Below, in pieces: positions 34,330 through 58,426 of a DNA stretch of 64,000 nucleotides. The number at the start of each line of letters is the position of its first letter. The stretch's first letter is position 1. The DNA is taken from NCBI RefSeq assembly GCF_054482525.1, contig NZ_CM137006.1; one strand, given 5' to 3'. The notes below the pieces were generated by a model. That model had not been told where the DNA came from. It saw only the letters and a program-made list of their open reading frames with translations, and did not search any database. The position numbers were made by a program, and so were the translations under genes.

Positions 34330-35668
34330 CATAAGCGCTAACTTAAGGGTTGAACCATCTGAAGAATGCGACGCCTCGGTGCCTCGTTAAGACGATGCCT
34401 CGCGTTCTTCAATTGCGTTTTGTAGGCTGTCAGGGATACTGTCCCACGAATGGCCACCTGTAAGCTCCAGATGACCATTTTTGTTATTCTCCACAACGAG
34501 TTAGTTCTTCTTTTCGGATCCGGCACTTCTGGGGGGGAAATCCAGCGATGGCTGGATTATGTCGTCAATTAAAAATGCGGCGAGTAGATTAGCAAATATC
34601 CACGCTTTCGCGAGTTCAGGTTCCTTTGCACGCAAAGCATCCAGGTGCAGCAAACTTTTGAGCCGCTTAAAAGCCAGTTCAATTTGCCATCGCAGACGGT
34701 AACAATCAGCCACTTGCTCTGCTGAATATTCATCTTCCGGTAATGATGTTAGCAATAGCACATGGCCCGCTGCTTCCAGCGTTTCCGCCTGAACTACTCG
34801 TCCTTTTCGACGATTCTCGCTGAGCAGTCGGGTTTTACTGATTAATGCTTTTTCGGGAGGAAGTGATACGGCAATGAGACGTGCCGGAAAGGGAGCTCCG
34901 GCTTTTTTATTACCTGAATTGCCTATCATTACAGTGGTTTCACCGTTCTTACCGCAATCCAGCCCGCGCAGAAAACCCATCATGTCAAAGCGCATTCCTT
35001 CTGCAGTTAACCAGCGCAATCCTCGCCAGTGAACCCGGACGATATAATCAGCTTCTCCAAAAGCAAGTGAGCGGATACATTCGGGACGCGAACCGAATCC
35101 CCGGTCAGCAATGCGTATCTCGTCTGCCGTTTGCGCAAATCGGTCCAGCCGTTCAGCGTCTCTGCTGTCGGTTAGCTCAAAATCAGTGAACTGACAGGTA
35201 TGAGGATCATATCCCATATGTAGTCGCCATTCAGCGCTGCCGCCCCCGGGCGCACTGATTGCTGTTCCATCGACAAGACGCAATCTCTTTCCGCTTGTAC
35301 AACCCGTAACTGCGGCGCGTACAGCAAGTGTTTGTGCGGCAAGTATGCCAAACCAGTCGGCGGCATTCCGCAGCCGCTTCAGGAGAGCCACGTCAGATAA
35401 TGTTGCAACGTCATGGAGCTGAGCCCATGCAGTGACTTCACGTAATGACATCCCCCCGGGGCCGTAAGCCAGCCCCAGACGTAGCAGAGTTGCAGCATCA
35501 CGAATTTCGCGGCGGCGGGTTAGAGCCCCGGCATTACGTGCCGAAGTATCCAGTTCTTCGGGCTTACCAATATGGGCCAGAATTGCTGACCAGTTATCGT
35601 GAGAGTAATTCATCGGCACGTTAAATCATATCAGGCGTAATACCACAACCCTTAAGTTAGCGCTTATG
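34330..35668 (-). mobile_element. IS186 (IS4 family), copy 1, transposase on minus strand
   Basis: ~1.34 kb bounded by 23-bp inverted repeats CATAAGCGCTAACTTAAGGGTTG; flanked by ~10-11 bp direct repeat GGATTACTCC (34319-34329 / 35669-35679). Confidence 0.9.
34501..35619 (-). CDS. insL: IS186 transposase
   Basis: 372-aa ORF MPMNYSHDNWSAILAHIGKPEELD..., identical in protein sequence to the ORF at 36231-37349. Confidence 0.95.
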   Translation of the reverse strand: MPMNYSHDNWSAILAHIGKPEELDTSARNAGALTRRREIRDAATLLRLGLAYGPGGMSLREVTAWAQLHDVATLSDVALLKRLRNAADWFGILAAQTLAVRAAVTGCTSGKRLRLVDGTAISAPGGGSAEWRLHMGYDPHTCQFTDFELTDSRDAERLDRFAQTADEIRIADRGFGSRPECIRSLAFGEADYIVRVHWRGLRWLTAEGMRFDMMGFLRGLDCGKNGETTVMIGNSGNKKAGAPFPARLIAVSLPPEKALISKTRLLSENRRKGRVVQAETLEAAGHVLLLTSLPEDEYSAEQVADCYRLRWQIELAFKRLKSLLHLDALRAKEPELAKAWIFANLLAAFLIDDIIQPSLDFPPRSAGSEKKN

Positions 35669-35689: not shown

Positions 35690-35842
35690 CTACTTCTTCG
35701 GTTCGTAAGCGAGAACAGCCTTAAACTCAATATTACGTTCCTTCACCGTAAACTCACACAGCGAGTCGCGGACCAGAAGCGTAAATCCCAGCACCGTTAA
35801 ACACAGCACTATGACTGCCACAAGGGCATATTTCGTCAGCAT
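35690..35842 (-). CDS. Hok-family type I toxin, paralog 1
   Basis: 50 aa [50 protein letters not shown]; single TM helix plus conserved C-terminal Hok signature. Confidence 0.85.
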
Positions 35843-35987
35843 GTTTATATTGCCTCCATGCGAAGAAGGGACTACCATCCGAGTTGTTGAGGTTCGGAGT
35901 GGCAGCCCCAGGATTGATAGAAATATCTCCTGGGGCTTCATCTTTCCAGACCTCAGAGTAAACCTGAAACCGGAAAGCTTCAGGCAC
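35754..35987 (-). CDS. Candidate mok-like overlapping frame (modulator of hok translation), copy 1
   Basis: ORF in another frame that starts upstream of hok and ends inside it, as in hok/mok/sok modules; true start uncertain. Confidence 0.35.
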
Positions 35988-36180
35988 CCGCTGTTATCTT
36001 ACCCTTCCTTAGCAAAATAACTGTTTATTTATACAGCTAGTCCTGTTTCGGACTTCTGTTGGCAACACTCGTTATTGCTCGTAAAACGACATCGCCCGCA
36101 GCCATTGCTGACCGCGGGCGAAAGTGTAAAGCAGGTGCCTTACCACCCTGACCTGACAACCGGATATGCGGGGATTACTC

Positions 36181-37520
36181 CCATAAGCGCTAACTTAAGG
36201 GTTGTGGTATTACGCCTGATATGATTTAACGTGCCGATGAATTACTCTCACGATAACTGGTCAGCAATTCTGGCCCATATTGGTAAGCCCGAAGAACTGG
36301 ATACTTCGGCACGTAATGCCGGGGCTCTAACCCGCCGCCGCGAAATTCGTGATGCTGCAACTCTGCTACGTCTGGGGCTGGCTTACGGCCCCGGGGGGAT
36401 GTCATTACGTGAAGTCACTGCATGGGCTCAGCTCCATGACGTTGCAACATTATCTGACGTGGCTCTCCTGAAGCGGCTGCGGAATGCCGCCGACTGGTTT
36501 GGCATACTTGCCGCACAAACACTTGCTGTACGCGCCGCAGTTACGGGTTGTACAAGCGGAAAGAGATTGCGTCTTGTCGATGGAACAGCAATCAGTGCGC
36601 CCGGGGGCGGCAGCGCTGAATGGCGACTACATATGGGATATGATCCTCATACCTGTCAGTTCACTGATTTTGAGCTAACCGACAGCAGAGACGCTGAACG
36701 GCTGGACCGATTTGCGCAAACGGCAGACGAGATACGCATTGCTGACCGGGGATTCGGTTCGCGTCCCGAATGTATCCGCTCACTTGCTTTTGGAGAAGCT
36801 GATTATATCGTCCGGGTTCACTGGCGAGGATTGCGCTGGTTAACTGCAGAAGGAATGCGCTTTGACATGATGGGTTTTCTGCGCGGGCTGGATTGCGGTA
36901 AGAACGGTGAAACCACTGTAATGATAGGCAATTCAGGTAATAAAAAAGCCGGAGCTCCCTTTCCGGCACGTCTCATTGCCGTATCACTTCCTCCCGAAAA
37001 AGCATTAATCAGTAAAACCCGACTGCTCAGCGAGAATCGTCGAAAAGGACGAGTAGTTCAGGCGGAAACGCTGGAAGCAGCGGGCCATGTGCTATTGCTA
37101 ACATCATTACCGGAAGATGAATATTCAGCAGAGCAAGTGGCTGATTGTTACCGTCTGCGATGGCAAATTGAACTGGCTTTTAAGCGGCTCAAAAGTTTGC
37201 TGCACCTGGATGCTTTGCGTGCAAAGGAACCTGAACTCGCGAAAGCGTGGATATTTGCTAATCTACTCGCCGCATTTTTAATTGACGACATAATCCAGCC
37301 ATCGCTGGATTTCCCCCCCAGAAGTGCCGGATCCGAAAAGAAGAACTAACTCGTTGTGGAGAATAACAAAAATGGTCATCTGGAGCTTACAGGTGGCCAT
37401 TCGTGGGACAGTATCCCTGACAGCCTACAAAACGCAATTGAAGAACGCGAGGCATCGTCTTAACGAGGCACCGAGGCGTCGCATTCTTCAGATGGTTCAA
37501 CCCTTAAGTTAGCGCTTATG
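36181..37520 (+). mobile_element. IS186, copy 2, transposase on plus strand (inverted relative to copy 1)
   Basis: Same 23-bp terminal inverted repeats; interior is the reverse complement of copy 1; flanked by GGATTACTCC direct repeat (36170-36180 / 37521-37531). Confidence 0.9.
36231..37349 (+). CDS. insL: IS186 transposase
   Basis: 372-aa ORF identical to the copy at 34501-35619. Confidence 0.95.
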   Translation: MPMNYSHDNWSAILAHIGKPEELDTSARNAGALTRRREIRDAATLLRLGLAYGPGGMSLREVTAWAQLHDVATLSDVALLKRLRNAADWFGILAAQTLAVRAAVTGCTSGKRLRLVDGTAISAPGGGSAEWRLHMGYDPHTCQFTDFELTDSRDAERLDRFAQTADEIRIADRGFGSRPECIRSLAFGEADYIVRVHWRGLRWLTAEGMRFDMMGFLRGLDCGKNGETTVMIGNSGNKKAGAPFPARLIAVSLPPEKALISKTRLLSENRRKGRVVQAETLEAAGHVLLLTSLPEDEYSAEQVADCYRLRWQIELAFKRLKSLLHLDALRAKEPELAKAWIFANLLAAFLIDDIIQPSLDFPPRSAGSEKKN

Positions 37521-37541: not shown

Positions 37542-37694
37542 CTACTTCTTCGGTTCGTAAGCGAGAACAGCCTTAAACTCAATATTACGTTCCTTCACCG
37601 TAAACTCACACAGCGAGTCTCCGACCAGAAGCGTAAATCCCAGCACCGTCAAACACAGCACTATGACTGCCGCAAGGGCATATTTCGTCAGCAT
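37542..37694 (-). CDS. hokE: Hok-family type I toxin, paralog 2 (probably the hokE equivalent next to ybdK)
   Basis: 50 aa [50 protein letters not shown]; differs from paralog 1 at two residues (V8A, R25G). Confidence 0.8.
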
Positions 37695-37794
37695 GTTTAT
37701 ATTGCCTCCATGCGAAGAAGGGACTACCATCCAAATTGTTTGGGTTTGGAGTGGCAGCCCCAGGGTTGATAGAAATATCGTCCTGGGGCTTCAT
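37606..37794 (-). CDS. Candidate mok-like overlapping frame, copy 2
   Basis: Out-of-frame ORF overlapping the 5' part of hok paralog 2. Confidence 0.35.
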
Positions 37795-38125
37795 CTTTCC
37801 AGACCTCAGAGTAAACCTGAAACCGGAAAGCTTCAGGCACCCGCCGTTATCTTACCCTTCCTTAGCAAAATGGCTGTTTATTTATACAGTAAGTCCTGTT
37901 TCGGACTTCTCAATCCTCATTTGATCAACTGAAGCTGAACCCGTTTTTTTCTGCATGCCTCAATCGTCAAAATTCTTCGCCACCAGTCCGCACTGCCATA
38001 ACTTGTCATATTGCAAAATGTAGCCAATTTGCTTCAGTCACCATCATCAAAAAAAAACATTCCAGAACTTCCGCATCTCGCCCAGTCGCTCCCACTTCTA
38101 TACTGAATAGAAAACGCCAACATAA

Positions 38126-42103: not shown

Positions 42104-42143
42104 TAAAAAAACCGCTCTCATCGAATGGATGAGAGCGGTTTCG
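42104..42143. terminator. Bidirectional rho-independent terminator between convergent mscM and pheP
   Basis: AAAAAAA-ccgctctcatc-gaatg-gatgagagcgg-TTTCGG perfect hairpin. Confidence 0.6.
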
Positions 42144-52339: not shown

Positions 52340-54576
52340 GTGGACTGGCTTCTTGATGTTTTTGCTACCTGGCTCTACGGCTTAAAAGTAATCGCGATAA
52401 CGTTAGCGGTCATCATGTTCATCAGCGGGCTGGACGATTTTTTTATTGATGTCGTCTACTGGGTACGCCGCATTAAACGCAAGTTGAGTGTTTATCGCCG
52501 CTACCCGCGAATGAGTTACCGCGAACTGTATAAACCAGATGAAAAACCGTTAGCGATTATGGTTCCGGCGTGGAATGAAACGGGCGTCATCGGCAATATG
52601 GCCGAGCTGGCGGCGACCACGCTCGACTATGAAAACTATCATATCTTTGTTGGCACCTACCCCAACGACCCCGATACTCAGCGTGATGTTGACGAAGTGT
52701 GCGCTCGCTTCCCAAACGTGCATAAGGTAGTCTGCGCGCGTCCTGGCCCCACCAGCAAAGCCGACTGCCTGAACAACGTGCTGGACGCCATCACCCAGTT
52801 TGAGCGTAGCGCCAATTTCGCATTTGCTGGTTTTATTCTGCATGACGCCGAAGATGTGATTTCACCGATGGAATTGCGTCTGTTCAACTATCTGGTCGAG
52901 CGTAAAGATCTGATTCAGATCCCGGTGTACCCATTCGAACGCGAATGGACGCACTTCACCAGCATGACTTACATTGATGAGTTTTCAGAACTGCATGGCA
53001 AAGATGTTCCGGTGCGTGAAGCCCTTGCCGGACAGGTGCCCAGCGCAGGCGTCGGCACCTGTTTCAGCCGCCGCGCCGTGACCGCACTGTTAGCTGACGG
53101 TGACGGTATTGCTTTCGACGTGCAGAGTCTTACTGAAGATTACGACATTGGTTTCCGCCTGAAAGAAAAAGGTATGACGGAAATTTTTGTCCGTTTTCCG
53201 GTGGTGGACGAAGCCAAAGAACGCGAGCAGCGTAAATTTTTACAGCACGCGCGGACGTCAAACATGATCTGCGTGCGCGAATATTTCCCCGATACCTTTT
53301 CGACTGCGGTTCGACAAAAATCTCGCTGGATCATCGGCATTGTTTTCCAGGGCTTTAAAACCCACAAATGGACCTCCAGTCTGACGCTGAACTACTTTCT
53401 CTGGCGCGACCGCAAAGGGGCAATCAGTAACTTTGTCAGCTTCCTCGCGATGCTGGTGATGATCCAGCTTTTGCTGTTGCTGGTGTATGAAAGTTTGTGG
53501 CCCGATGCCTGGCATTTCCTTTCTATTTTCAGCGGCAGCGCATGGTTAATGACTCTGCTGTGGCTAAACTTTGGCTTGATGATTAACCGCATCGTGCAGC
53601 GGGTGATTTTCGTTACTGGCTACTACGGCCTGACGCAGGGGCTGCTATCTGTCCTGCGTCTTTTCTGGGGCAACCTGATTAACTTCATGGCCAACTGGCG
53701 CGCGTTAAAACAGGTACTTCAACACGGCGATCCACGTCGCGTCGCGTGGGATAAAACAACGCATGACTTCCCCAGCGTGACTGGCGATACCCGCTCGTTG
53801 CGTCCGTTAGGTCAAATCCTGCTGGAAAATCAGGTCATCACTGAAGAACAACTCGATACAGCACTGCGTAATCGCGTCGAAGGTCTACGCCTGGGCGGTT
53901 CAATGCTGATGCAGGGGCTGATTAGCGCCGAACAGCTGGCACAGGCGCTGGCAGAGCAAAACGGCGTGGCGTGGGAATCCATCGACGCCTGGCAGATCCC
54001 GTCCTCGCTGATTGCCGAAATGCCGGCCTCCGTGGCGCTGCATTATGCAGTGCTGCCGCTGCGTCTGGAAAATGATGTGTTAATTGTCGGCAGTGAAGAT
54101 GGTATTGACCCGGTTTCGCTGGCAGCCCTGACGCGTAAAGTCGGACGCAAAGTGCGTTACGTCATTGTTCTGCGGGACAAATTGTCACGGGGTTACGTCA
54201 CTGGTATGCACGCCGACGCGGTCACGATCCGCGGGCAATGTTGTACAATGCGGTTCAGCATCAGTGGCTCACGGAACAGCAGGCCGGTGAAATCTGGCGG
54301 CAATATGTGCCGCATCAGTTCCTGTTCGCCGAAATACTGACCACGCTCGGTCATATTAATCGTTCAGCAATTAACGTGTTGTTATTGCGCCATGAACGCA
54401 GTTCTCTGCCGCTCGGCAAGTTTTTGGTCACCGAAGGCGTTATCAGCCAGGAAACGTTGGATCGCGTCCTGACAATTCAACGCGAATTACAAGTTTCGAT
54501 GCAATCACTATTACTCAAAGCAGGTTTAAACACAGAACAGGTTGCGCAACTGGAGTCCGAAAATGAAGGAGAATAA
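52340..54576 (+). pseudogene. nfrB: nfrB (glycosyltransferase with C-terminal MshEN-like c-di-GMP-binding region, phage N4 susceptibility), interrupted by a frameshift
   Basis: 666-aa frame ends at 54340 in Cys/Ser-rich read-through; a second frame (protein-like from about 54238 to 54576) carries a further MshEN-like motif LPLGKFLVTEGVISQETLDRVL. Total span is 2237 nt, one base short of 745 codons plus stop. Confidence 0.65.
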
Positions 54577-57535
54577 CCTTAATCGCGTCATCGGATGGTC
54601 TGGTTTACTGCTGACGTCTTTATTGAGTACCAGCGCACTCGCAGACAATATCGGCACCAGCGCAGAAGAGCTGGGGCTGAGCGATTATCGCCATTTTGTT
54701 ATTTATCCCCGTCTCGACAAGGCGCTGAAGGCACAGAAAAATAACGACGAAGCAACCGCCATCCGCGAATTTGAATATATACACCAGCAGGTGCCGGATA
54801 ATATTCCGCTAACTTTATACCTTGCGGAAGCCTATCGCCATTTTGGTCATGATGCCCGGGCGCGGCTGTTGCTTGAGGATCAACTGAAACGTCACCCAGG
54901 AGATGCCCGACTTGAGCGCAGTCTGGCGGCTATTCCAGTTGAAGTGAAAAGCGTTACGACTGTTGAAGAACTGCTTGCCCAGCAAAAAGCGTGCGACGCT
55001 GCGCCGACCCTGCGTTGTCGCAGTGAAGTTGGGCAGAATGCCCTGCGGCTGGCACAATTACCTGTCGCCAGAGCGCAACTGAACGATGCGACGTTTGCTG
55101 CATCGCCGGAAGGAAAAACGCTGCGAACCGATCTGCTGCAACGCGCAATCTACCTGAAACAATGGTCCCAGGCAGATACGCTATACAATGAAGCACGCCA
55201 GCAGAACACATTAAGCGCGGCAGAACGCCGCCAGTGGTTTGATGTGCTTCTTGCCGGGCAGCTGGACGATCGGATCCTGGCGCTGCAATCACAGGGGATC
55301 TTCACCGATCCTCAGTCATATATTACTTACGCGACCGCGCTGGCTTATCGTGGCGAAAAAGCACGCCTCCAGCGTTATCTCATTGAAAATACTCCGCTAT
55401 TTACCACGGACGCACAAGAGAAAAGTTGGCTCTATCTGTTATCTAAATACAGCGGCAACCCCGTTCAGGAGTTGGCGAATTATACGGTACAGTTTGCCGA
55501 CAACCGCCAGTATGTTGTTGGCGCGACGCTACCGGTGCTGTTAAAAGAAGGTCAGTACGACGCAGCGCAAAAACTGCTCGCCACCCTCCCCGCCAATGAA
55601 ATGCTTGAGGAGCGTTATACCGTTAGCGTAGCGACCCATAACAAGGCTGAAGCTCTGCGTCTGGCACGATTGCTGTATCAGCAAGAACCGGCAAATCTTA
55701 CCCGCCTGGATCAACTGACCTGGCAACTGATGCAGAACGAGCAGTCACGCGAAGCTGCCGATTTATTGCTGCAACGCTATCCTTTCCAGGGCGATGCGCG
55801 TGTCAGCCAGACTTTAATGGCGCGACTGGCGTCTCTGCTGGAAAGTCATCCTTACCTGGCAACGCCGGCGAAGGTGGCGATTTTATCGAAACCCTTACCG
55901 CTGGCGGAGCAACGTCAGTGGCAAAGTCAGTTGCCGGGTATTGCAGATAATTGCCCGGCAATAGTTCGCTTGCTGGGCGATATGTCGCCTTCCTACGATG
56001 CCGCCGCCTGGAACCGTCTGGCAAAGTGTTATCGGGACACGCTACCCGGTGTGGCGTTGTATGCATGGCTTCAGGCCGAACAACGACAACCGAACGCCTG
56101 GCAACATCGTGCGGTAGCCTATCAGGCGTATCAGGTTGAGGACTACGCCACCGCACTGGCGGCCTGGCAGAAAATCAGTCTTCACGACATGAGCAATGAG
56201 GATCTGCTTGCTGCTGCCAATACCGCCCAGGCGGCAGGAAATGGTGCGGCTCGCGATCGCTGGCTTCAGCAGGCAGAACAACGTGGGCTGGGAAACAATG
56301 CCCTCTACTGGTGGCTGCATGCGCAACGTTACATTCCTGGTCAGCCGGAACTCGCACTGAACGATCTCACGCGCTCAATCAATATTGCGCCTTCTGCCAA
56401 CGCTTACGTTGCGCGGGCGACAATTTATCGCCAACGTCATAATGTCCCGGCGGCGGTGAGTGATTTGCGCGCCGCTCTGGAACTGGAACCGAATAATAGC
56501 AACACCCAGGCAGCGCTCGGTTACGCCTTGTGGGATAGCGGTGATATCGCACAGTCGCGGGAAATGCTCGAACAGGCGCATAAAGGGCTACCGGACGATC
56601 CGGCACTTATCCGACAACTGGCCTACGTGAACCAGCGTCTGGATGACATGCCTGCGACGCAGCACTACGCCCGGCTGGTGATTGATGACATTGATAATCA
56701 GGCGCTGATAACCCCACTGACCCCAGAGCAAAATCAGCAACGCTTCAATTTCCGCCGTCTGCATGAGGAGGTCGGTCGCCGCTGGACGTTCAGTTTCGAT
56801 TCTTCTATCGGCTTGCGTTCCGGCGCAATGAGTACCGCTAACAATAATGTCGGCGGCGCAGCGCCAGGGAAAAGCTATCGTAGCTACGGGCAACTGGAAG
56901 CCGAGTACCGTATCGGACGCAATATGCTGCTGGAAGGCGACCTGCTCTCAGTTTATAGCCGCGTCTTTGCCGATACCGGTGAAAACGGGGTGATGATGCC
57001 GGTGAAAAATCCGATGTCCGGCACCGGTCTGCGCTGGAAGCCGCTGCGCGATCAGATCGTTTTCCTCGCCGTCGAACAGCAGTTGCCGCTGAACGGGCAA
57101 AATGGCGCATCCGATACCATGCTGCGCGCCAGCGCCTCATTCTTTAATGGCGGCAAATACAGCGACGAATGGCACCCGAACGGTTCAGGCTGGTTTGCCC
57201 AAAACCTGTACCTCGATGCGGCGCAATATGTCCGCCAGGATATTCAGGCGTGGACGGCAGATTATCGCGTAAGCTGGCATCAGAAGGTGGCGAACGGACA
57301 GACTATTGAGCCTTACGCTCACGTTCAGGACAACGGTTATCGTGATAAAGGCACTCAGGGCGCGCAGCTTGGCGGTGTCGGGGTCCGCTGGAATATCTGG
57401 ACCGGCGAGACGCACTACGACGCCTGGCCGCACAAACTCAGTCTCGGCATCGAATATCAACATACCTTTAAGGCGATTAATCAACGTAACGGAGAGCGCA
57501 ACAACGCGTTTCTCACCATTGGAGTGCACTGGTAA
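54563..57535 (+). CDS. nfrA: Outer-membrane protein NfrA (phage N4 receptor, TPR-containing)
   Basis: ORF 54542-57535; start at MKENNLNRVIGWSGLLL gives 990 aa; start overlaps the nfrB frame-B stop. Confidence 0.9.
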   Translation: MKENNLNRVIGWSGLLLTSLLSTSALADNIGTSAEELGLSDYRHFVIYPRLDKALKAQKNNDEATAIREFEYIHQQVPDNIPLTLYLAEAYRHFGHDARARLLLEDQLKRHPGDARLERSLAAIPVEVKSVTTVEELLAQQKACDAAPTLRCRSEVGQNALRLAQLPVARAQLNDATFAASPEGKTLRTDLLQRAIYLKQWSQADTLYNEARQQNTLSAAERRQWFDVLLAGQLDDRILALQSQGIFTDPQSYITYATALAYRGEKARLQRYLIENTPLFTTDAQEKSWLYLLSKYSGNPVQELANYTVQFADNRQYVVGATLPVLLKEGQYDAAQKLLATLPANEMLEERYTVSVATHNKAEALRLARLLYQQEPANLTRLDQLTWQLMQNEQSREAADLLLQRYPFQGDARVSQTLMARLASLLESHPYLATPAKVAILSKPLPLAEQRQWQSQLPGIADNCPAIVRLLGDMSPSYDAAAWNRLAKCYRDTLPGVALYAWLQAEQRQPNAWQHRAVAYQAYQVEDYATALAAWQKISLHDMSNEDLLAAANTAQAAGNGAARDRWLQQAEQRGLGNNALYWWLHAQRYIPGQPELALNDLTRSINIAPSANAYVARATIYRQRHNVPAAVSDLRAALELEPNNSNTQAALGYALWDSGDIAQSREMLEQAHKGLPDDPALIRQLAYVNQRLDDMPATQHYARLVIDDIDNQALITPLTPEQNQQRFNFRRLHEEVGRRWTFSFDSSIGLRSGAMSTANNNVGGAAPGKSYRSYGQLEAEYRIGRNMLLEGDLLSVYSRVFADTGENGVMMPVKNPMSGTGLRWKPLRDQIVFLAVEQQLPLNGQNGASDTMLRASASFFNGGKYSDEWHPNGSGWFAQNLYLDAAQYVRQDIQAWTADYRVSWHQKVANGQTIEPYAHVQDNGYRDKGTQGAQLGGVGVRWNIWTGETHYDAWPHKLSLGIEYQHTFKAINQRNGERNNAFLTIGVHW

Positions 57536-58426
57536 ATGCGTAAGTTCATTTTCGTATTGCTGACACTGCTTTTGGTCAGCCCTTTTTCCTTTGCGATGAA
57601 AGGTATTATCTGGCAGCCACAAAACCGTGATAGTCAGGTTACCGATACCCAGTGGCAGGGGCTGATGAGTCAGTTACGTTTGCAAGGCTTCGATACCCTG
57701 GTTTTGCAATGGACCCGTTACGGCGATGCATTCACCCAGCCAGAACAGCGCGCGTTATTGTTTAAGCGTGCCGCAGCTGCGCAACAGGCTGGCCTGAAGC
57801 TGATTGTCGGGCTGAATGCCGATCCGGAATTTTTTATGCACCAGAAACAGTCATCCGCGGCGCTGGAAAGCTATCTTAACCGCCTGCTGGCTGCCGATCT
57901 CCAGCAAGCCAGATTATGGAGCGCCGTACCTGGCGTAACGCCGGATGGCTGGTACATCAGCGCGGAAATTGACGACCTGAACTGGCGCAGCGAAGCCGCC
58001 CGTCAGCCTTTGCTGACATGGTTAAACAACGCGCAGCGGTTGATTAGCGATGTTTCAGCAAAACCGGTTTATATCAGTAGTTTTTTCGCCGGAAACATGT
58101 CGCCCGATGGCTATCGCCAACTGCTGGAACACGTTAAAACAACCGGCGTTAATGTCTGGGTACAGGATGGCAGCGGCGTGAATAAACTTACCGCTGAACA
58201 GCGTGAACGTTATCTACAGGCCAGCGCCGATTGCCAAAGTTCCGCCCCTGCCAGCGGCATTGTTTATGAACTGTTTGTCGCCGGCAAAGGCAAAACCTTT
58301 ACAGCGAAACCGAAACCGGATGCAGAGATCGCCTCGCTGTTAGCGAAACGTTCCTCTTGCGGTAAAGACACGCTCTATTTCTCTCTGCGCTATTTGCCCG
58401 TTGCGCACGGCATTCTCGAGTATTAA
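57536..58426 (+). CDS. ybcH: Uncharacterised periplasmic/lipoprotein-like protein YbcH
   Basis: 296-aa ORF with signal peptide directly after nfrA. Confidence 0.85.
   Translation: MRKFIFVLLTLLLVSPFSFAMKGIIWQPQNRDSQVTDTQWQGLMSQLRLQGFDTLVLQWTRYGDAFTQPEQRALLFKRAAAAQQAGLKLIVGLNADPEFFMHQKQSSAALESYLNRLLAADLQQARLWSAVPGVTPDGWYISAEIDDLNWRSEAARQPLLTWLNNAQRLISDVSAKPVYISSFFAGNMSPDGYRQLLEHVKTTGVNVWVQDGSGVNKLTAEQRERYLQASADCQSSAPASGIVYELFVAGKGKTFTAKPKPDAEIASLLAKRSSCGKDTLYFSLRYLPVAHGILEY

Follow-up and report, generated by a model that had tools for sequence, protein, structure and literature searches.

NfrB, the synthase of a sugar polymer that is required for infection by phage N4, is activated by the binding of c-di-GMP (PMC8669469), and the residues on which c-di-GMP binding and N4 infection depend have been defined as L490, G491 and L537 (PMC8669469) and as G491 and G519 (PMC8669472). 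Indeed, the G491L exchange abolishes infection (PMC8669469, PMC8669472), and it belongs to a set of engineered point mutants that also comprises D169A, D267A and W330A (PMC8669469). N4-resistant nfr mutants in nfrB date back to Kiino and Rothman-Denes (1989), as cited in PMC8669472 and PMC10211494. In the laboratory nfr and point mutants, regulatory or catalytic lesions of NfrB abolish N4 adsorption and infection, and these defects therefore provide a mechanistic basis for predicting phage resistance in the case described here. The laboratory mutants were, however, selected or engineered and phenotyped, whereas the present allele is natural and known from its sequence alone.

In the literature, the C-terminal part of NfrB appears either as a single MshEN domain or as an MshEN-like domain followed by a domain of unknown function (PMC8669469, PMC8669472, PMC10211494). 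The published binding assays were performed with NfrB 414–745, which includes both of the C-terminal modules described below (PMC8669469). The related MshEN/GSPII domains of MshE, PilB and PilF (5HTL, 8PDK, 6F8L) are placed N-terminal to a secretion ATPase, whereas the NfrB modules lie C-terminal to a GT2 synthase. In this respect NfrB resembles the BcsA-PilZ cellulose synthase, which is likewise a membrane GT2 enzyme with a c-di-GMP receptor at its C-terminus, and which relies on a local diguanylate cyclase of its own (PMC10211494). The receptor folds differ (PilZ in BcsA, MshEN in NfrB), and the enzyme serves only as an analogy for the possible effect of a truncated regulatory domain. Natural lesions of nfrB and dgcJ caused by IS elements, deletions or premature stops have been documented by Sellner et al. 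(2021, PMC8669472), and these include the lesions of all E. coli B strains.

The locus described here was identified in a stretch of 64,000 nucleotides of contig NZ_CM137006.1, which we refer to as the window. The best megablast matches were annotated as nfrB or nrfB (cyclic di-3',5'-guanylate-activated glycosyltransferase) with nfrA next to it, and every top match was 2238 bases long. The order nfrB-nfrA-ybcH of the operon is preserved, and for the native nfrB frame so is the 14-nt overlap between the nfrB stop and the nfrA ATG that was reported previously (PMC8669469). In full agreement with the name given in the first-pass annotation, the product of the upstream reading frame scored 1179.8 bits against the NCBIfam NfrB equivalog model NF008411, for which the curated cutoff is 1170 bits. 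This match was confined to positions 1–610 of the 723 model positions, whereas an intact reference reached 1333.6 bits over positions 1–722. Positions 629–722 were matched by a separate open reading frame (ORF) of 112 codons, and no single ORF covered the full model. The locus is thus nfrB, as a pseudogene of the NfrB family.

The two reading frames were present as the first-pass annotation had described them. The upstream frame runs from a GTG at 52340 to a TGA at 54338–54340 and comprises 666 codons with a Cys/Ser-rich end (...RGQCCTMRFSISGSRNSRPVKSGG...). The native C-terminal frame runs to 54576, where it overlaps the start of nfrA, and contains a 112-aa ORF from an ATG at 54238 (MLYNAVQHQW...). 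As had also been noted, the entire span of 52340–54576 is one base short, with 2237 nt compared to the 2238 nt (745 codons and a stop) in intact references. Accordingly, there is no continuous ORF of 745 codons; the frame shifts at codon 613 and stops after codon 666. Pairwise alignment with nfrB of NZ_AP022261.1 (WP_000383939.1, 745 aa) revealed one gap and no substitutions, which bears out that a single frameshift splits the gene. The alignment with strain 042 displayed 19 substitutions and the identical gap. In comparison with ten complete genomes that have an intact 745-aa nfrB, a 1-bp deletion is the sole difference. Specifically, the reference sequence CTGCGGGGACAAA reads CTGCGGGACAAA in the window, such that one G is missing from a GGGG run at codons 612/613. 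The predicted product consists of 612 native residues, the last of which is R612, and an aberrant stretch of 54 residues, while the 133 native residues beyond R612 are missing. This exceeds the ~110 residues that were initially thought to be detached; the 112-aa ORF begins at an ATG within the lost region and does not cover all of it. The features of the locus are listed in Table 1.

Table 1. Features of the nfrB locus and the genes downstream of it, in window coordinates
Feature	Coordinates	Strand	Basis
nfrB codons 1–612 (GT2 70–382, TM/linker, first c-di-GMP motif domain, most of the MshEN fold)	52340..54175	+	no difference from WP_000383939.1 up to R612
First MshE-type c-di-GMP motif domain, NfrB 489–540, kept, including L490, G491, G519 and L537	53804..53959	+	NF053729, 48.7 bits
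Lesion, GGG where all intact references have GGGG	54174..54176	+	pairwise alignment; 40-mer search
Tail read out of frame (54 aberrant residues, DKLSRGYVTGMHADAVTIRGQCCTMRFSISGSRNSRPVKSGGNMCRISSCSPKY), with TGA at 54338–54340	54176..54340	+	frame analysis
Native-frame remainder, nfrB codons 614–745 and stop, unjoined from the N-terminal part	54178..54576	+	alignment, NF008411
ATG-initiated 112-aa ORF, NfrB 634–745, no upstream Shine-Dalgarno-like motif	54238..54576	+	frame analysis
Second MshE-type c-di-GMP motif domain, NfrB 665–714, detached	54331..54480	+	NF053729
nfrA, intact, identical to reference	54563..57535	+	alignment
ybcH, third gene of the nfrBA-ybcH operon, intact, identical to reference	57536..58426	+	alignment

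The lesion had originally been placed near 54236 and ascribed to the loss of an A from CAAATG. We ruled this out, as the reference likewise reads ...CGCGGGCAATGTTG... with CAATG at that position, and the sole difference lies in the G-run at 54174–54176, about 60 nt further upstream. In-silico insertion of an A restores an ORF of 745 codons, as had been anticipated, but so does the insertion of any base within 54139–54340. This is because the two frames overlap over about 200 nt, between 54139, from where the downstream frame is open, and 54340, to which the upstream frame extends. The insertion test is therefore unable to place the lesion, the position of which is fixed only by sequence comparison with the references.

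A missing base in a homopolymer could reflect a sequencing or assembly error, in which case the true genome would have GGGG and an intact nfrB. Homopolymers are the classic sites of such indel errors, and a 40-mer with the mutant GGG, designed such that the GGG site lies within each of its 28-nt seeds, matched none of the 5426 complete E. coli genomes in RefSeq. The present run is, however, only four bases long, and in the nearest complete genome, 19KM1776 (NZ_CP151009.1), about 61 kb could be aligned to the window with nine substitutions and one gap, which is the nfrB G. A single indel in ~61 kb indicates that the assembly is not indel-prone. Furthermore, the exact 666-aa product was found on at least nine contigs recorded in NCBI, ENA and Logan. 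De novo assembled Logan contigs of the runs ERR12355647, ERR12328294 and SRR30479802 carried GGG and were 100% identical to the window over 5.9–8.0 kb, so that GGG emerged from separate assemblies of at least three runs, which come from two archives. The presence of the allele in independently assembled contigs of three runs argues for a genuine clonal allele. We therefore rejected a general homopolymer error as the main reading, and the error that the first-pass annotation had offered as its alternative is now very improbable. The three runs could represent repeated sequencing of one isolate or outbreak clone, and they are evidence for the absence of the base from the DNA rather than for a wide distribution of the allele. 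The G thus appears to be missing from the DNA of one repeatedly sequenced clone through a real mutation. Taken as a whole, we explain the locus by a recent genuine 1-bp deletion in one E. coli clone that resulted in a frameshifted and probably inactive nfrB, to which we assign a probability of roughly 70%.

Conceivably, the G-run could also serve as a contingency tract, in which slipped-strand mispairing would turn nfrB on and off. In favor of this, a homopolymer has changed its length in a phage-receptor gene, and genes of this type undergo phase variation in some bacteria. Phase-variable loci have long tracts with length polymorphism among strains, whereas the present tract of 4 nt is far shorter than typical contingency tracts. 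The GGGG control 40-mer matched 4511 of the 5426 complete genomes, while neither the GGG nor the GGGGG 40-mer had a match in any of them. The allele is thus private, and its site is no mutational hot spot. The deletion allele was also without a match among the GTDB species-representative genomes. In addition, the other nfrB lesions that we sampled were located elsewhere in the gene. Phase variation is therefore scarcely credible as an explanation of the missing G.

A megablast search detected the nfrB region in 5092 of the 5426 complete E. coli genomes, while 334 genomes were without a match. In sixty genomes drawn at regular intervals from the megablast ranking, we found another deletion of 1 bp, an insertion of IS1A, an nfrB truncated at its 5' end and one that was almost entirely deleted, as well as a +5-bp allele with a span of 2243 that was shared by three genomes. 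An in-frame +15-bp variant of nfrB also occurs among the complete genomes. The strain with a 1-bp nfrB deletion other than the present one is STEC409, and in AHS8C65RI an IS1A-split nfrB is annotated as two proteins. The natural inactivation reported by Sellner et al. concerns the same gene and the same kind of event, with the same expected result, namely the absence of the NGR glycan and resistance to N4. In contrast to those lesions, the present allele is private (0 of 5426 genomes), late and C-terminal, and neither the catalytic domain nor the known c-di-GMP site is affected by it. A literature search for frameshifts or pseudogenes of nfrB retrieved nothing specific beyond the study by Sellner et al. 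We conclude that the allele is new but its kind is known, and that it is an ordinary case of a recurrent and already documented loss of nfrB. With respect to annotation, the locus should be treated as one frameshifted pseudogene and not as two genes; on 450 contigs with a broken nfrB, gene callers listed the 112-aa product as a protein in its own right.

Within the truncated product, Pfam models matched the glycosyltransferase region at residues 165–382 (PF13632, E 1.6e-40) and 70–332 (PF13641, E 4.6e-35), which identifies it as a GT2 enzyme. The MshEN domain was assessed against Pfam PF05157 and the fold of MshE (5HTL). In intact NfrB, PF05157 matched residues 542–628 with model positions 2–89 of 90, whereas in the truncated product the match ended at residue 617, model position 78 of 90. 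A search of PDB sequences retrieved no solved structure of NfrB and only the N-domains of MshE, PilB and PilF, which aligned to NfrB 487–626. As the MshEN fold thus spans residues 487–626 and the break is at residue 612, the last MshEN helix is replaced by out-of-frame sequence. A complete MshEN domain, consisting of a four-helix bundle with two 24-residue motifs and a C-terminal subdomain, is therefore lacking in the truncated product. The experimentally defined residues L490, G491, G519 and L537 are nevertheless all located upstream of the break and are retained, which contradicts the earlier view that the frameshift detaches the c-di-GMP site. What is detached is the last MshEN helix (613–626) together with a separate second MshEN-type module.

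The remainder after R612 comprises this last helix, a linker and a C-terminal helical module (~640–745). On intact NfrB, the NCBIfam model NF053729 for the MshE-related c-di-GMP motif domain, with a cutoff of 38 bits, matched two stretches with a total of 66.4 bits, and on the detached 112-aa fragment alone it scored 46.6 bits over NfrB 665–714. When a profile of the lost region was compared with the PDB, it matched residues 9–61 of MshE 5HTL, the c-di-GMP motif pair, with an E-value of 3.5e-11, and PilF with an E-value of 8e-31. The AlphaFold model of NfrB 627–745 displayed eight helices with a pLDDT of 94.7. The curated HMM, the profile-to-PDB search and the fold together identify two MshEN-type modules in NfrB, which are split by the frameshift.

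In a search of 1.84 billion representative proteins, full-length homologs with identities down to 22–30% aligned through residues ~725–743. Residues 651–720 were present in 97% of 28 aligned full-length homologs, down to an identity of ~30%. In the same alignment, the mean identity to the E. coli protein was 25% for residues 651–720 compared to 27% for the MshEN C-subdomain. With a conservation on a par with that of the MshEN C-subdomain, the detached region is no disposable tail. A shorter C-terminal region was found in 3 of the 28 homologs, and a full-length tail is thus not universal in the family. The family consensus of the lost region contains the tandem motifs LGxxLVxxGxxxxxxLxxAL ... 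LGxxLVxxGxISxxxLxxALxxQ, of which the first is degenerate in the second module of E. coli NfrB (G to A, Q to H), while the Arg of the second motif is a Pro.

Based on homology and fold, the second module may bind c-di-GMP. It is possible, though we put this forward only tentatively, that residues ~640–745 constitute a functional second c-di-GMP-binding or DgcJ-docking module that is required for activation. If this were the case, NfrB would be controlled via two receptor sites, and this clone would offer a ready-made means of testing it. The allele removes precisely the little-studied second module and spares the known c-di-GMP site, and it could thus be used to probe the role of this module. 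A literature search for a mutant that removes only NfrB 613–745 retrieved no published example.

Beyond its effect on NfrB itself, the frameshift changes the layout of the operon. Ribosomes translating nfrB now terminate 223 nt upstream of the nfrA ATG, and the translational coupling between nfrB and nfrA would therefore be lost. The lost coupling would lower the levels of NfrA, and also of YbcH, as a second and additive effect. Judging from the gene layout, such polarity on nfrA is likely. As the zone of frame overlap leaves room for recoding, one could envisage that a −1 frameshift restores NfrB. Alternatively, a fragment of 112 aa, or one of 89 aa, could complement the truncated protein in trans; the ATG at 54238 and a GTG at 54307 are available in the native frame, and the 89-aa ORF from 54307 was called by the gene caller. 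However, we found no slippery heptamer of the type X XXY YYZ in 54137–54338 and, on scanning the overlap zone, no Shine-Dalgarno-like motif upstream of the candidate restart codons. The relatives have one continuous ORF, so that a recoding signal would not have been under selection, and the locus does not qualify as a programmed frameshift. Moreover, a fragment acting in trans would still be without residues 613–633. Rescue at the level of translation is accordingly exceedingly improbable. An Rfam scan of the whole window detected no family overlapping nfrB.

The truncated product would retain the GT domain together with the membrane helices, and also the first four-helix bundle, which binds c-di-GMP. 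The allosteric activation of NfrB by c-di-GMP passes through the damaged C-terminal region, and the broken MshEN fold, the 54 Cys-rich aberrant residues and the missing module would yield an inactive or unstable synthase. Since activation needs the C-terminal region, this outcome is the most likely one. Without the Nfr/NGR exopolysaccharide, N4 would not adsorb, and the cells would be resistant to phages that use this glycan. Most likely, the deletion thus abolishes the synthesis of the Nfr glycan and renders the cells resistant to N4-like phages.

On the other hand, the allele may confer residual or altered activity, as it leaves the catalytic domain and every experimentally validated c-di-GMP contact residue in place. 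NfrB(1–612) could have partial activity, or it could be constitutive because it has escaped regulation, in which case the glycan would be made and the cells would be N4-sensitive. This would be in agreement with the intact GT2 domain, TM helices and first c-di-GMP motif domain with L490, G491, G519 and L537, and with the shorter C-termini of some homologs. In addition, the regulatory domain is described as autoinhibitory in other synthases, such as BcsA-PilZ, in work cited in PMC8669472. However, with the terminal MshEN helix gone and 54 aberrant residues including several Cys in its place, the regulatory domain is likely to misfold. Because c-di-GMP activates NfrB and G491L abolishes infection, damage to this region should lock the enzyme in the off state rather than release it, which makes an unregulated NfrB less likely (PMC8669469). 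The conservation of the lost module across the family and the lost coupling to nfrA also argue against retained function, which we consider unlikely. A recent deletion that inactivates nfrB remains the reading that we prefer, and it predicts resistance to N4-like phages (Schitoviridae) and other NGR-dependent phages together with the loss of a c-di-GMP-controlled surface glycan. This would be relevant for the prediction of host range in phage therapy.

Apart from the lesion in nfrB, we observed several differences in mobile elements between the window and its close relatives. The window contains two 1337-bp IS186-like elements in inverted orientation, at 34331–35667 and 36183–37519, each with a 372-aa ORF. 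The hokE/sok locus is duplicated here, and each copy carries one of the two elements, inserted at the target GGGGATTACTCCCC in both cases; Rfam sok matches were located at 35834–35989 and 37686–37842. Both elements are missing from 19KM1776, which in turn carries an IS200C insertion of ~707 bp between ybdG and pheP that the window does not have (~42106–42111). As there are otherwise only nine SNPs in ~61 kb, IS traffic is the main difference between the window and 19KM1776. In WP8-S18-ESBL-07 and other genomes, including NZ_AP022261.1, nfrB is identical apart from the G, and about 10.6 kb of extra DNA with an ISEc1 (ISAs1-family) transposase and hypothetical genes is located close upstream of it, while in the window cusS directly adjoins nfrB.
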